A DNA stretch of 64,000 nt from an uncultured Phycisphaeraceae bacterium (GCA_964426135.1 CAYRPN010000018.1:65-64064), one strand, 5' to 3'; positions 44,835 to 48,788 are shown, counted from the first letter of the stretch. The notes: generated from the sequence alone by a model not told the origin. Made by a program: numbers and translations.

Positions 44835-47800
44835 TCATTCCCCCGCCGCCACTGTCTTGCCGTCGGGCTTGGGCGGAGGCGGCGGCGTGAGCAACTGCAT
44901 GGGCGGCAGCGTGCCGATGTGGTAGTTGTGGCACTTGAGGCAACTGTCGCCGGCGAGCTGCGGCTTGTGACAGGTGATGCAGGTTTCCTTGTTCACCGCG
45001 GTGAAGCCCGCAAGCTCAGCCGGGAAATCAAACGGATCGAGCGAGGCGAACTTGGCCTTCAGGTCGGTCTTGGCGGGCTTGTGGCAGACCTGGCAGTTCT
45101 TCAGTTCGGGCAGGCTCAGGTGGGGCCGGTGCGAGAACTTGACGAACGGACGCTCCTGAATCTCCGGCCGCTTGGCCTGCCAGTTGATGAGCAGACCGCT
45201 GGCGACGGAAGGCGCGGCGGCCTCCGCGTCGGGCGCTTTGGCGGCGGCCTTGGCGGCGACGAGCGATTCGAGCTTGGCGGCGGTCTGCTCGATGCTGTGG
45301 CACTTGACGCAGCCGGCGGCGACGTCGGCGGTCATGCTGCTGAAGAACGCGCGGGCCGGCGAAATCGGCCCGGCATCCACCGGCGCTGGCGGCGTGGCCA
45401 GGGCGCTGGCGCTGAGCCAGGACTTGAGGAAGATGTTGCCGTGGCCCATCGCCCGGTAGCGCAGGCCGAAGCTCGACTCATCCAGGTACCAGCCGCCGGT
45501 GGCGACGCGCTCCTCAGGCGAAAGCGCGACTTCCTTCGCCGGCGGCGGCGCGGTCTTGGGCGTGGTGGCGGGCTTCTTGGTGTCGCCGTCATCTTCGAAC
45601 AGATCGCCGCCGGGCTTCTTGGGAGTGGCGGGCTTTTTCGGTTCGTCGTCGTCGAAGAGATCGCCGCCTTTCTTGGCGTCCTTCGCAGGCGCGGCCTTGT
45701 CCTTGGCGGGAGCGGGGGCGGGTTTCTTCGGTTCGTCGTCGAGGTCGAAGAGATCGCCGCCCTTCTTGGCGTCCTTCGCAGGCGCGGCCTTGTCCTTGGC
45801 GGGAGCGGGCGTGGCGGGTTTCTTCGGTTCGTCGTCGTTGAAGAGATCGTCGGCCTTCTTGGCCTGCAGGGCGAGACGGTCGGCGGGCTCGTCGTTCGTC
45901 CAGACGCCTGCGGCGTTTCCGCTAACCGGCTTGACCGGCGATGCAGGCTTGTCCGCGAAGACGCCTGCGGCGTTTCCGCTAAACGGCTTGACCGGCGACG
46001 CAGGCTTGTCCGTGAAGACGCCTGCGGCGTTTCCGCTAAGCGCGGCGCTGACCTTGGCGGACGAGGCATGGAACTGTCCGACCCAGGCGCGAATCGCGCC
46101 GCGCGGCGAAGCGCCGGCCACGGTGGTGCGCACCTCGTCATCGGCTTCGTCGCGATCCGGGCGTTCGTGGCGCCAGCCGCCGCGGCGGTTGTCCGTTTCG
46201 TCGAGCGGCTCGTACTTGATCTTGCCGAACTCCAGGTCCGACTTCTTGTTCATCAAGTCCCGCACGCGAATGACGGCGATGTGCTCGATGGTGGCCCGCC
46301 ATTGTCCGCTGACGGCGACGGTGACGCGCGACTTGACGCCGGTGCGGATTTCCGCGTCGCCCGGCAGTTCATCGCCGGCCCGCGCCACCTGCCAGGGGCG
46401 AGTCGCGCCGCCGACACGGACCTGTACCAGGCCGCGCACCGCCACGACACGCGCCACCGCCAGCGGCGGCGCCGGATCTTTGGCGACATCCAGAATCTCC
46501 GACGAAGGCTTGGGCGTCACCGGTGTCGGTGTCGGCGTGGGCGTCGGCGTGGGAGTAGGTGTCGGAGTCGGCGTCGGCGTGGGAGTTGGTGTCGGGGTAG
46601 GCGTCGGCGTCGGGGTTGGCGTGGGAGTGGGTGTTGGGGTCGGGGTCGGGGTCGGGGTCGGGGTCGGAGTCGGAGTGGGCGTGGGCGTCGGCGGCTTGGG
46701 CTTGACGGGGTCAGGCAACGTCGGGATCACCGGGTCGGGCGTCACCGGATCGATCGGCGACGGCAGCTTGGTGGTTGGGTCAGGCCGGGTCGGATCGGGC
46801 CGGGGCTTGGTGGCGGTGGGGTCGCCGGTCGTCGGCGTGGTCGTGGGCCGCGCCGGGTCGGAGGTCGTGGGCGAGGGCGGCACCACGGGCTTCGATTCAG
46901 GAATCAACGAAGGCAGCGGCGCCTTGGGCAGATGAAGCTTGTCGTCGACCAGGTCTTCGCTCAGGTCGGCTGATCCCAGCGGCACGCGCGAGCTGGGCAC
47001 CAGTTCCGCCCGCGGCGTGACGGTCGGGCCCACGGCCAGCACCTGGGGCGCGGCCGTGGTCTTGATCGCACTGGGCTTGGCGTCGTCGAACAGGTCGTCG
47101 TTCTTGGGCTTGGGCTTGGGCGGCGTGGGCTTGGGCGGTTCGTCGTCGCCGAAGAGATCATCCGCCGGCTTGGGTTTGGGCGGCGTGGGCGTGGCGGGAT
47201 CGGGGGTCGGCGGCGTCGGCGGCGCGACGCGGATCGGACGGTCGGGGATGTCCTGCATTCGCCCCGCCCGATAGAGCGGAATCGTGTCCAGAAGATCGGG
47301 GAACCACTGCGATCGCGCCGACACGATCACATCCACCGGGAACTGCGCGGAAAGCTCCGCCAGTTCGGCGTCGCTGATCTTGCGGCCCAGCGCGTTGCCG
47401 AGGCGCTGCCGCAGCGCTTCTTGCCCCTTGAGCGACAAATCGTGGACCAGTTCCTTCACCGCCCAGCCGATTTTCACCACCGCCTGCTTCTGTTCCTTGG
47501 TCGCCTTGGTCAGGTCGTTGAGCTTGAAGTTGGCGGGCAGGCTTGCGATGGCGGCGGCGGCGGCGGGGTCGCTGGAGAGAATCAGGCTCATGAACGGCGA
47601 GAGCTTGCCGTCGATGTCGTAATCGGCGCCGCGGGGCCAGGAGCCGATCCAATCACCGCCGTCGGCCGCGAACTCTTTGAGCAGATCCATGTCCAGGCCC
47701 GGCAGATGGAAGACGAGCAGGCCCTTGCCGCCGGACTGCATCGCCTGCCCGTGGCAACTGGCGCAGGATTCCTCGAAGGGCCTGGTGGCCATGTGGCGTT

Positions 47801-48788
47801 CGCCGATGTCGCCCTGGTGGCAATCGGTGCAGGCGAACAGGCGATTTTTCTGCTGGAAATAGCTGGTGTGGGAACTGTGGTCGAAGATGATGCGCGTCCG
47901 CCGGTCGTACGGGAACCGGTCGAACGCCGGGTGCCCGTTGGCGAGGCTGGCGAACTGGCTGGTATGACAGGCCTGGCAGTTCGCATTGGTCATGAAGGCG
48001 AGCTGGTGTTCCTGGCCGCGGTGTTCGATGTGGCAGGTGGAGCAGGCGAGCTGCTGGGCTTCATCCTTGGGCACGCCGGGTGCCAGGGACGTGAGCACGT
48101 TGCGCAGGAGGCCGCCGTCCTGCTTTTTAGCCAGTTGCTTTTCGGTGATTTTCGCCAGCAGGCCCGACGGCACGCCGTGCGCCAGCAGGGGCTGGTGGCG
48201 CATGCCGGGATGGTCGGCGTGGCAGCCGAGGCAGTTCTTGCTTTCCTCGATCGCCTGCGGGCGGTTGCCCAGCGCGGTGCCGGCCCAGTGTTCGGGCATG
48301 GAGCCGCCGTCCTCGCCTTCACCTCGAGCCACGGAATGGCAAGCGGCGCAGGATGCGGGGTTGGCGTTCTTGAGCACCTGGCCGTGGGCGAAGGACAGCT
48401 CGCCGGGCTGGATGAACTTCATTCGCTGCTCGCTGAAGAGCATCAGGGAGAGCAGGCCCACGGTCAGCGTGATGGTCCAGAAAATCACCTTGCCGCGCAG
48501 GGCGCGGACACTGCGCCTCGGCTGGCACTTGGCGATCGAGTTGCAGCAGGAGCCGTCGGGCAAGGGGCCGTGCTTGCACGCGCCGCCGCGGCTGGCGGGG
48601 CGGGTGCAGTTCCAGCGATCGCCCTTGCGGACGGGGATGCATTCGCCGGCGGCCTGGCAGTGGCCTCCCTTGTCGGGGCCCAGGTGGCAGGGCCTGCCCT
48701 CGCACAGGTGTCCGCAGACCCAGCGCTGGTTGGGGCGCTCGTACTGGCTCTCCTGATGGCCGAACTGCTGAAGCTTGAGTTTCTTCAT
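44835..48788 (-). CDS. Decahaem c-type cytochrome mosaic protein (Cys-rich N-terminus, one TM, 6 CxxCH, Pro/Thr and acidic repeats, FecR-like segment, 4 CxxCH)
   Basis: ATG start overlapping the upstream stop (ATGA). Ten CxxCH motifs are read from the translation: CAACH, CLGCH, CSTCH, CQACH, CTDCH, CASCH ... CVKCH, CQVCH, CITCH, CLKCH. There are 11 Cys in the first 95 aa and a TM segment ..[18 protein letters not shown]... The (TP)n tract is at ~46500..46690. Confidence 0.8.

Follow-up and report, generated by a model that had tools for sequence, protein, structure and literature searches.

Why would a cytochrome keep ten haem-binding motifs in two blocks held apart by hundreds of residues of low-complexity sequence? 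The question is raised by one gene on a 64,000-nucleotide stretch of DNA (the window) from an uncultured Phycisphaeraceae bacterium (GCA_964426135.1, CAYRPN010000018.1:65-64064). An earlier note, made from the sequence alone, had described its product as a decahaem mosaic: a Cys-rich, cytoplasmic-looking head, a single transmembrane helix and two haem blocks tethered by a long, partly FecR-like linker. The open reading frame (ORF) list and the translation give a single unbroken ORF of 1317 codons with an ATG start, at 44835..48788 including the stop codon, exactly where the note had placed it, and on the minus strand, which the note did not state. As shown below, this ORF encodes PtdG, the decahaem c-type cytochrome of a named but uncharacterized family. 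Its layout is ordinary within that family, and the window copy is a variant with a long linker.

The decahaem gene is the last of seven minus-strand genes that run from position 59385 down to 44835. In gene set, order and descriptions, the seven match gene for gene the cluster named ptdABCDEFG in a preprint (2023/24; bioRxiv 10.1101/2023.11.21.568154), which reported it from Alphaproteobacteria (UBA11136) of marine oxygen-deficient zones and also from Nitrospirales and Planctomycetes. There, PtdA is named as a pentahaem protein, PtdB as a porin, PtdC as an FAD/NAD(P) oxidoreductase, PtdD as a tetrahaem protein, PtdE as a cyclic nucleotide monophosphate (cNMP)/4Fe-4S protein, PtdF as a ‘ferric reductase-like’ membrane protein and PtdG as a ‘periplasmic deca-heme protein’. 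Our ORF closes a complete ptdABCDEFG cluster and is therefore PtdG. Homologues at 35–40% identity occur in marine Alphaproteobacteria, Rhodospirillaceae, Nitrospirales and Planctomycetes metagenome-assembled genomes (MAGs), the kinds of organism named in the preprint. The window protein shares with the published PtdG the seven-gene set and order and the ten CxxCH motifs; the published description makes no mention of the doubled four-Cys head, the transmembrane anchor, the 6+4 split of the haems or the linker. The window copy departs from the typical form in a linker that is about 500 residues longer, in an extra β domain and in a methylase insertion that interrupts the cluster. The ptd gene names were absent from other papers in our literature search.

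The family proved to be large and its architecture invariant. Searching a collection of 5.8 billion proteins with the window protein returned 107 related clusters, none of which has an informative name. Exactly ten CxxCH motifs in a 6+4 pattern are present in 105 of these; the remaining two are truncated. A hydrophobic helix near residue 100 is nearly universal, with eight to ten Cys ahead of it in most. Their lengths range from 725 to 1030 residues, and the window protein is an outlier in length only. A locus scan over 185,579 GTDB species genomes gave 364 candidate loci, 311 of which were confirmed as relatives; the 311 ptdG-bearing species genomes span about ten phyla. The best 80 of the 311 were fetched, and they represent Planctomycetota, Verrucomicrobiota, Alphaproteobacteria, Myxococcota, Nitrospinota, Nitrospirales, Acidobacteriota, SAR324, Gemmatimonadota and the cultured Candidatus (Ca.) Uabimicrobium amorphum. 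When the ORFs of these loci were compared with the window proteins by phmmer, the gene order ptdE-ptdF-ptdG was invariant over the ~80 loci, wherever a locus was long enough to show it, with ptdA-D alongside. Homologues in other genomes, among them a complete planctomycete genome and a Prosthecobacter MAG, are surrounded by the same seven-gene set. We conclude that the succession of head, transmembrane helix, six-haem block, helical domain, variable linker and four-haem block is a conserved plan found in hundreds of genomes. The head, helix and split haem blocks had thus been read correctly as parts of one protein; what does not stand is the notion of a one-off mosaic.

The same comparison bears on the possibility that the ORF is an assembly or sequencing artefact, in which two cytochrome genes were fused by a frameshift or a misassembled repeat. 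Nothing beyond the presence of tandem repeats speaks for it. All full-length orthologues carry both haem blocks in one ORF, and none has them split into separate genes, the outcome that the note had named as pointing to an artefact. Comparably long or longer versions are found in independent assemblies (L009, 1386 aa; L008, 1164 aa), and the coding signature is uniform along the ORF. The orthologue comparison, which the note itself had proposed, refutes the artefact, and we assign it a negligible probability. The GC content at third codon positions (GC3) in the annotated frame is 0.81–0.92 per segment, linker included, and 0.71 in the Thr-Pro run, in a genome of ~63% GC. This uniformly high in-frame GC3 indicates that the whole ORF looks translated in one frame, including the central region for which the note had considered that it might not be translated. 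The ptdF stop overlaps the ptdG start by 4 nt, and ptdG is translationally coupled to ptdF. A scan for promoters and terminators around ptdG returned counts at or below shuffled expectation and was uninformative.

The membrane anchor and the haems define the core of the protein. A single hydrophobic peak (residues 99-121; Kyte–Doolittle 19-mer average up to 2.05) agrees with the one transmembrane helix proposed earlier. The helix, a signal anchor, is placed at residues 99-122 (48423..48494), lies at an equal position in homologues and corresponds to a helix of residues 100-124 in the AlphaFold2 (AF2) model of a short, 735-residue homologue (P0008). That model was built from an alignment of 106 sequences and has a mean predicted local distance difference test (pLDDT) score of 86 and a predicted TM-score (pTM) of 0.73. 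All ten CxxCH motifs were located in the expected 6+4 arrangement: those of haem block 1 (residues 123-354; 47727..48422) are at residues 147, 186, 249, 271, 320 and 342, and those of haem block 2 (residues 1091-1295; 44904..45518) at 1160, 1232, 1270 and 1283. Every one of them is invariant in the family alignments. The alignments also contain invariant additional His residues, six in block 1 (135, 204, 256, 286, 304 and 307) and four in block 2 (1116, 1220, 1223 and 1290). One invariant distal His per haem implies ten bis-histidine (bis-His) haems that would serve electron transfer, with no obvious catalytic haem or open coordination site. Following block 1 is a conserved α-helical periplasmic domain (residues 355-512; 47253..47726), in which P363, D366, G382, W384, P385, W442 and W495 are conserved and which reaches a pLDDT of 96–98 in the homologue model. 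Block 2 is introduced by a conserved GGWY..Y..GH segment that supplies a haem ligand.

Only generic multihaem Pfam domains are recognized in PtdG, namely Cytochrome_C7, MtrC/F II/IV-like and Paired_CXXCH. Block 1 matches Paired_CXXCH_1 above its cutoff and Cytochrom_c3_2 at 23.7 bits, just under the 25-bit cutoff. Block 2 matches Cytochrome_C7 (PF14522) at 52.5 bits against a gathering threshold of 24.8, with the best stretch at residues 1216-1288, and the MtrC/MtrF II/IV-like domain at 30.8 bits. The protein is not a member of the MtrA/DmsE decahaem family TIGR03508 (20.1 bits versus a cutoff of 192.2), and matches to the TmcA and HmcA models of NCBIfam are weak and far below cutoffs. For Cytochrom_NNT (PF03264), the tetrahaem domain of the membrane-anchored NapC/NirT/CymA quinol dehydrogenases, the whole protein gave no match at E ≤ 1 and the C-terminal block a sub-threshold 15.7 bits. 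The helical domain has no Pfam or PDB match. A Foldseek search of the PDB with the full-length P0008 model returned nothing better than E 1.3, leaving the head, the helical domain and the overall fold without a recognizable solved relative.

The head (residues 1-98; 48495..48788) contains ten Cys outside CxxCH motifs, all within residues 25-88. The earlier count of eleven in residues 20-90 was one too high; its statement that none belongs to a CxxCH motif holds. Eight of the ten are invariant in the family alignments (Cys25, 34, 44, 50, 61, 71, 81 and 88). Aligned heads reveal a tandem duplication of a four-Cys module with the pattern W-x-C-x8/9-C-x2-GP..D..G-x-C-x5/6-C-x-P. Module 1 reads W-x-C25-x8-C34-x2-GP-D-x2-G-x-C44-x5-C50-x-P and module 2 reads W-x-C61-x9-C71-x2-GP-x-PDG-x-C81-x6-C88-x-P. 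Judged by this pattern, the two modules presumably form two metal sites. A 773-residue PtdG homologue (P0113) has three such modules instead of two, which supports the view of the head as a modular repeat. The domain search on residues 1-100 that the note had suggested gave no Pfam match; the duplicated module came to light by alignment. With a profile of 30 heads, 655 clusters were matched among 1.84 billion representative proteins (E ≤ 1e-3). In each of the best 150, the head forms the extreme N terminus of a protein of PtdG length or of an obvious fragment whose sequence runs on into the transmembrane helix, and none of these 150 shows it in another protein context. An Arg/Lys-rich stretch ahead of the transmembrane helix assigns the head to the cytoplasm, in agreement with the periplasmic maturation of the haems. 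In the P0008 model it is irregular and rich in β-bridges (pLDDT 75–87).

The occurrence of the head tracks that of ptdE. Every head-bearing locus that reaches far enough upstream contains ptdE, and the four loci with a cleanly head-less PtdG (L004, L088, L089 and L093), where the transmembrane helix lies at about residues 20–50, all lack it. This pattern supports a functional, and probably physical, link between the head and PtdE. The head-less, ptdE-less form of the cluster was seen in Rhodomicrobiaceae and related metagenome contigs. In all four of its loci PtdF is about 25 residues longer, and in the three whose upstream gene was characterized (L004, L088 and L089) a 2Fe-2S domain is found at the N terminus of PtdC; this form looks like a simpler input module. 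Two further candidates for a head-less PtdG, P0086 and P0080, were rejected as cases of miscalled starts.

To place the long middle of the window protein in its family context, we compared the interval between haems 6 and 7 across 75 full-length loci, a comparison the earlier note had called for. It is as short as 239 and as long as 906 residues, the median being ~320, and most orthologues fall between 240 and 360; in the window protein it is 818. About 220 residues of the interval are folded, ~160 of them in the helical domain and ~60 in the GGWY..Y..GH lead-in, and the shortest orthologues thus have essentially no free linker. The longest PtdG found is L009 (at 1695-5855), followed by the window protein, L008, L011 (1069 aa) and L001 (1059 aa). 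L009 and L008 are from Phycisphaeraceae, L011 is from a Planctomycetota MAG and L001 is from strain ZRK34. Long linkers come mostly from Phycisphaerae-type Planctomycetota, with one 540-residue case in an alphaproteobacterium. In most relatives this loop is short; its expansion to the ~580-residue middle of the window protein is lineage-specific.

In composition, this expansion (residues 513-1090, 578 residues) consists of 76% disorder-promoting residues with a net charge of −1. Linker part 1 (residues 513-769; 46482..47252) contains 33% Pro and 20% Thr and is absent or short in most orthologues. It includes the Thr-Pro run, previously given as about 30 dipeptides and now delimited as (TP)28 (residues 701-756; 46521..46688), which uses eight different codons. 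Next comes an inserted all-β domain (residues ~770-866; 46191..46481), and then linker part 2 (residues 867-1090; 45519..46190), which is predicted to be disordered. Tandem Repeats Finder detected two repeats in part 2. A 57-bp unit (19 aa) occurs in 2.4 copies of 96% identity at nt 45902-46039; the 19-residue repeat described earlier is therefore real, in two full copies and a degenerate third rather than in three. A 93-bp unit (31 aa) occurs in 2.6 copies of 88% identity at nt 45621-45863, and the acidic repeat, first described as ~28 residues long, is a lysine/acidic unit of 31. Residues 867-925 have a pLDDT below 50 in AF2, which, together with the composition, agrees with the disorder proposed in the note.

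These features invite the interpretation that the C-terminal tetrahaem module rides on a ~580-residue leash, swinging between the hexahaem block and outer-membrane partners as a shuttle or long-reach wire that spans a wide planctomycete periplasm. The disorder-promoting composition and the low pLDDT of residues 867-925 would fit, and (TP)28 and the KP/PT stretches are typical of extended spacers. Independent folding of the two haem blocks is conceivable, since neither lacks any of its distal His, and four of the five longest linkers are from Phycisphaerae-type Planctomycetota. The family as a whole tells against it. Most orthologues have almost no free linker, including those of Pirellulales, Planctomycetia and Ca. 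Uabimicrobium, whose intervals are the shortest (239–270 residues, of which ~220 are folded); a leash therefore cannot be the mechanism of the family. For the same reason we rejected the idea that long linkers track a wide planctomycete periplasm: the shortest ones belong to Planctomycetota whose envelopes are just as unusual. In addition, the short homologue is predicted as a single confident body (pTM 0.73), which fits poorly with two halves that tumble independently, and if the two blocks pack together in this way, the linker would be a loop whose ends lie close to one another. The tether or long-reach wire suggested in the earlier note is weakened accordingly, and we consider it unlikely.

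What, then, might the expanded loop do? The window linker contains seven acidic-hydrophobic motifs, among them ADDLFGDDE, NDDLFDD, SEDLVDD, ADDLFNDDE, GGDLFDDDE and GGDLFEDDG; two DDLF motifs and one EDLV motif lie in part 1 and four DLF motifs in part 2. The N-terminal tail of PtdA in the window (residues 30-100) contains GGLLDDEDVP twice and GALLDDEDD once, within repeats of the type GGLLDDEDVP(K/A)KP. We counted the pattern [DE][DES][LI][LFI][DEGNS][DEGNS] across loci and compared it with composition-preserving shuffles. The linkers of 75 PtdG proteins contain 59 occurrences (7.25 per 1000 aa) versus 2.1 ± 1.4 after shuffling, ~28 times the expectation. In 51 PtdA tails it occurs 24 times (3.4 per 1000 aa). 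Outside these two regions, its density in PtdG, PtdA and the other five proteins does not exceed 0.07 per 1000 aa. Loci whose PtdG has the motif also tend to have it in PtdA (odds ratio 8.7, Fisher p 0.008, uncorrected for phylogeny). From its sequence, the motif looks like a short linear motif for a common partner, and a binding or tethering role for the linker is a possibility that the motifs favour. Because the same motif is found in the PtdA tail, the linker most likely recruits or positions partner proteins. The repeats in the PtdA tail are very similar to the acidic ones in the PtdG linker, and PtdA tails from other phyla contain the motif as well. In L009, where PtdG has two β-sandwich copies, the acidic motif takes the variant forms LLNDLLEDEPP and GGGLLDDDDVKP.

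The motif also bears on a neutral origin of the expansion, that is, low-complexity drift by slippage or duplication in a tolerant loop. Orthologues differ very widely in the length and sequence of the linker, and the 57-bp and 93-bp repeats, being 96% and 88% identical in DNA, are recent duplications, as drift would predict. Drift would not account for a DD(L/I)(F/L) motif found across phyla at ~28 times the shuffled expectation, nor for a β insert that is kept at 29–39% identity in four related genomes and duplicated in one of them. The mixed codons of (TP)28 likewise argue for maintenance at the protein level. We regard a purely neutral expansion as very unlikely.

The β insert corresponds to the segment in which the earlier note had seen a resemblance to FecR. 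It is shared, at 29–39% identity, with L001/P0006, L008 and L011; L009 has it twice, the first copy within this identity range and the second at 17%, and besides the window it was found only in these four loci. Neither the window segment nor the five homologous copies match FecR (PF04773) in Pfam at E ≤ 10; a word-indexed homology search with the 96-residue insert gave no matches, and a profile of the insert against PDB sequences returned nothing relevant. An AF2 model made from two sequences only (window and P0006; mean pLDDT 64) shows an eight-stranded β domain of ~90 residues (pLDDT 80–86) followed by disorder. With this domain, Foldseek gave 166 PDB matches at E ≤ 10, and there was no FecR or PupR structure among the 50 listed. 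The FecR assignment thus finds no backing in the family and sequence searches or among the structure matches listed, and the block is regarded as a small β-sandwich insert. The best fold match, a weak one, is 5IX9 (E 0.034, probability 1.0, TM-score 0.78 normalized to the 76-residue target). 5IX9 is the RIN domain, a periplasmic β-sandwich that retains the MpIBP adhesin under a TolC-like pore (PMC5550230). SH3b cell-wall-binding domains come next in the list, non-significantly and with TM-scores below 0.25.

These matches raise the prospect that the β-sandwich and the acidic repeats fix PtdG to peptidoglycan, an outer-membrane pore, cations, minerals or polysaccharide, and not to Ptd partners. 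RIN, the closest fold, retains an RTX adhesin at an outer-membrane pore, the SH3b matches point in weaker form to cell-wall targeting, the repeats are acidic and a CBM_4_9 protein is a conserved downstream neighbour in the window and in L009. Against such an anchor, the best E-value is modest and comes from a two-sequence model of low mean pLDDT, the SH3b scores are poor, the linker is net neutral over its 578 residues and the motif shared with the PtdA tails points to a partner within the system. An envelope, mineral or polysaccharide anchor appears improbable to us, to about the same degree as the leash.

Several neighbouring genes inform how PtdG could be embedded in the envelope. Directly upstream, ptdF (48785..49612, minus strand, as are all genes named here) encodes a 275-residue polytopic membrane protein. 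In 85 sequences, its residue pairs His76/His90 and His249/His263 are conserved to 98–100%, and each pair is spaced i,i+14 within a predicted transmembrane helix. His pairs of such spacing in transmembrane helices are the classical signature of two stacked bis-His b-haems, as in cytochrome b of the bc1 complex and in four-helix dihaem proteins. By this pattern, PtdF is a probable dihaem b-type cytochrome; one homologue gave faint Ni_hydr_CYTB/DUF4405 matches. PtdF also has a conserved cytoplasmic helical insert of ~110 residues (residues ~130-240) with no known family match. The cytoplasmic PtdE (50949..52724) combines a cNMP-binding domain with a polyferredoxin of 16 Cys (Pfam cNMP_binding and Fer4_11/Fer4_7; matches to DmsB/HydN/NrfC-type NCBIfam models were below cutoffs). 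From domain searches, synteny and the preprint, ptdD (52888..53892) encodes a periplasmic tetrahaem c554-like cytochrome and ptdC (54083..55471) a membrane-anchored FAD/NAD(P) reductase with a C-terminal 2Fe-2S domain. The ptdB product (55636..57216) has a signal peptide, ends in ..YRFKF and is a putative outer-membrane porin, and ptdA (57358..59385) encodes the pentahaem cytochrome with the motif-bearing tail.

Taken together, we think it probable, with some reservation, that PtdG is the decahaem subunit and inner-membrane haem relay of Ptd, a penta/tetra/deca-haem, NAD(P)H-linked porin–cytochrome conduit, and that its middle is an expanded, partner-recruiting loop rather than the functional core. 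Electrons from cytoplasmic NAD(P)H would enter via PtdC, with its FAD and 2Fe-2S centre, and via the polyferredoxin PtdE, which would dock on, or relay through, the two four-Cys metal sites of the PtdG head. They would cross the inner membrane through the two b-haems of PtdF. In the periplasm, the haem chain of PtdG would take them up, its position next to PtdF secured by the protein's own transmembrane helix. From there they would pass via the tetrahaem PtdD to the outer-membrane cytochrome–porin pair PtdA/PtdB and on to an external acceptor. The ~580-residue middle would be a loop on the protein surface, linking the helical domain to haem block 2 and made of Pro/Thr spacers with acidic motifs and one β-sandwich; it would most likely recruit or position partners and would not conduct electrons.

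Several points weigh against this proposal. The preprint states that Ptd function ‘remains completely unknown’, and we infer both the direction of electron flow and the acceptor. We also infer the packing of the two haem blocks, from the pTM and from linker arithmetic. The head sites could hold structural Zn rather than Fe-S. One locus, L092, is the only exception to the co-occurrence of head and ptdE: its PtdG (P0085, 3175-5559) has an internally deleted head that retains the YHRP start and the CHRVRSLRSRR end and has lost the Cys modules, and ptdE is retained. PtdF has no significant Pfam or PDB sequence match (a profile against the PDB gave only coiled-coil noise), which leaves the His pattern as the basis for its b-haems. 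The motif association between PtdG and PtdA carries no phylogenetic correction. Finally, the methylase insertion between ptdE and ptdF in the window could disturb co-expression.

That insertion comprises an N6/N4 DNA methylase gene (50121-50945) and an ORF of 176 residues without a family match (49661-50191); the pair could be a small restriction-modification module. The ptdE-ptdF junction is empty in ~80 other ptd loci, and L006 has a different insert there (bAvd/23S_rRNA_IVP-like). The junction seems to be an insertion hotspot. Directly downstream of ptdG lies the gene for the CBM_4_9 protein, which has an N-terminal anchor (43341-44474); its homologue in L009 is also found downstream of ptdG (6571-7899), and the protein may be an accessory particular to this lineage. 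Two genes downstream of ptdG is a 193-residue fragment of an IS1595-family (ISXO2-like) transposase (42530-43111), and further on a PhoX-like phosphatase with a C-terminal PEP-CTERM sorting motif is encoded (38635-40065).

The assignment to PtdG removes the mystery of the mosaic and shifts the surprise from ptdG alone to the Ptd system as a whole. The comparison provides the family with a testable anatomy: a cytoplasmic, presumably metal-binding head that tracks PtdE, an anchor beside a probable dihaem-b subunit, ten predicted bis-His haems and a variable motif loop. Previously unreported are the duplicated four-Cys head and its link to PtdE, the bis-His ligation predicted for all ten haems, the His pairs of PtdF, the motif common to PtdG and PtdA and the RIN-like insert. 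The Ptd cluster is present in hundreds of species and highly transcribed in ocean oxygen-deficient zones, and its anatomy suggests that many heterotrophs of aerobic or microaerobic life, seldom regarded as electroactive, have an NAD(P)H-fed outlet for electrons to the exterior. If true, this would bear on the redox cycling of iron, manganese and humic substances in oceans, soils and lakes. A bolder version, which is conceivable and on present evidence rather doubtful, holds that Ptd is a bacterial, envelope-spanning counterpart of NOX/ferric reductases, dumping NAD(P)H electrons outside and bypassing the quinone pool. The head would then be a new type of metal-binding domain (Fe-S or Fe) on the cytoplasmic side, through which PtdE, under cNMP regulation, connects to the haems in the membrane. 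The motifs shared by the PtdG linker and the PtdA tail would be a docking code that assembles or ‘fly-casts’ the periplasmic relay, a code that Phycisphaerae would have multiplied greatly, along with a plug domain of the adhesin type.

How does the proposed conduit relate to known systems? The ‘novel porin-MHC’ (multihaem cytochrome) cluster of freshwater Verrucomicrobia, which has an eight-haem periplasmic cytochrome and a porin of at least 20 strands (PMC5615132), was rejected as a different system. At the level of parts, the insert resembles the RIN domain of RTX adhesins (5IX9) in being a small β-sandwich; the match is weak and there is no sequence homology. Pro-rich spacers of the TonB type likewise follow an inner-membrane anchor with long extended segments; the PtdG spacer differs in lying inside a cytochrome, between two haem blocks, and shares no sequence homology with them. 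Like MtrCAB/Pcc, Ptd combines ten haems of the bis-His type with a porin and multihaem cytochromes nearby, and is presumed to transfer electrons across the envelope. MtrA, however, is soluble and resides inside its porin, whereas PtdG has an inner-membrane anchor and a cytoplasmic domain and would be fed by cytoplasmic Fe-S and flavin proteins rather than by a quinol dehydrogenase. The Tmc and Hmc complexes of sulfate reducers similarly join a periplasmic c3/c7-type multihaem cytochrome to a membrane b-type cytochrome and a cytoplasmic Fe-S protein; their other subunits differ from those of Ptd, which has no CCG-domain protein and adds an FNR-type reductase and an outer-membrane module. The window PtdF gave no Pfam or PDB match in our searches that would place it in the FRD, Ni_hydr_CYTB or cytochrome b561 families. 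In its predicted logic, Ptd is nonetheless like NOX/FRE and MsrQ-Fre, in which an NAD(P)H-flavin reductase and a dihaem-b membrane protein move electrons outward. In contrast to those systems, the functions in Ptd are carried by separate polypeptides and would be extended by haem-c wires to the outer membrane.

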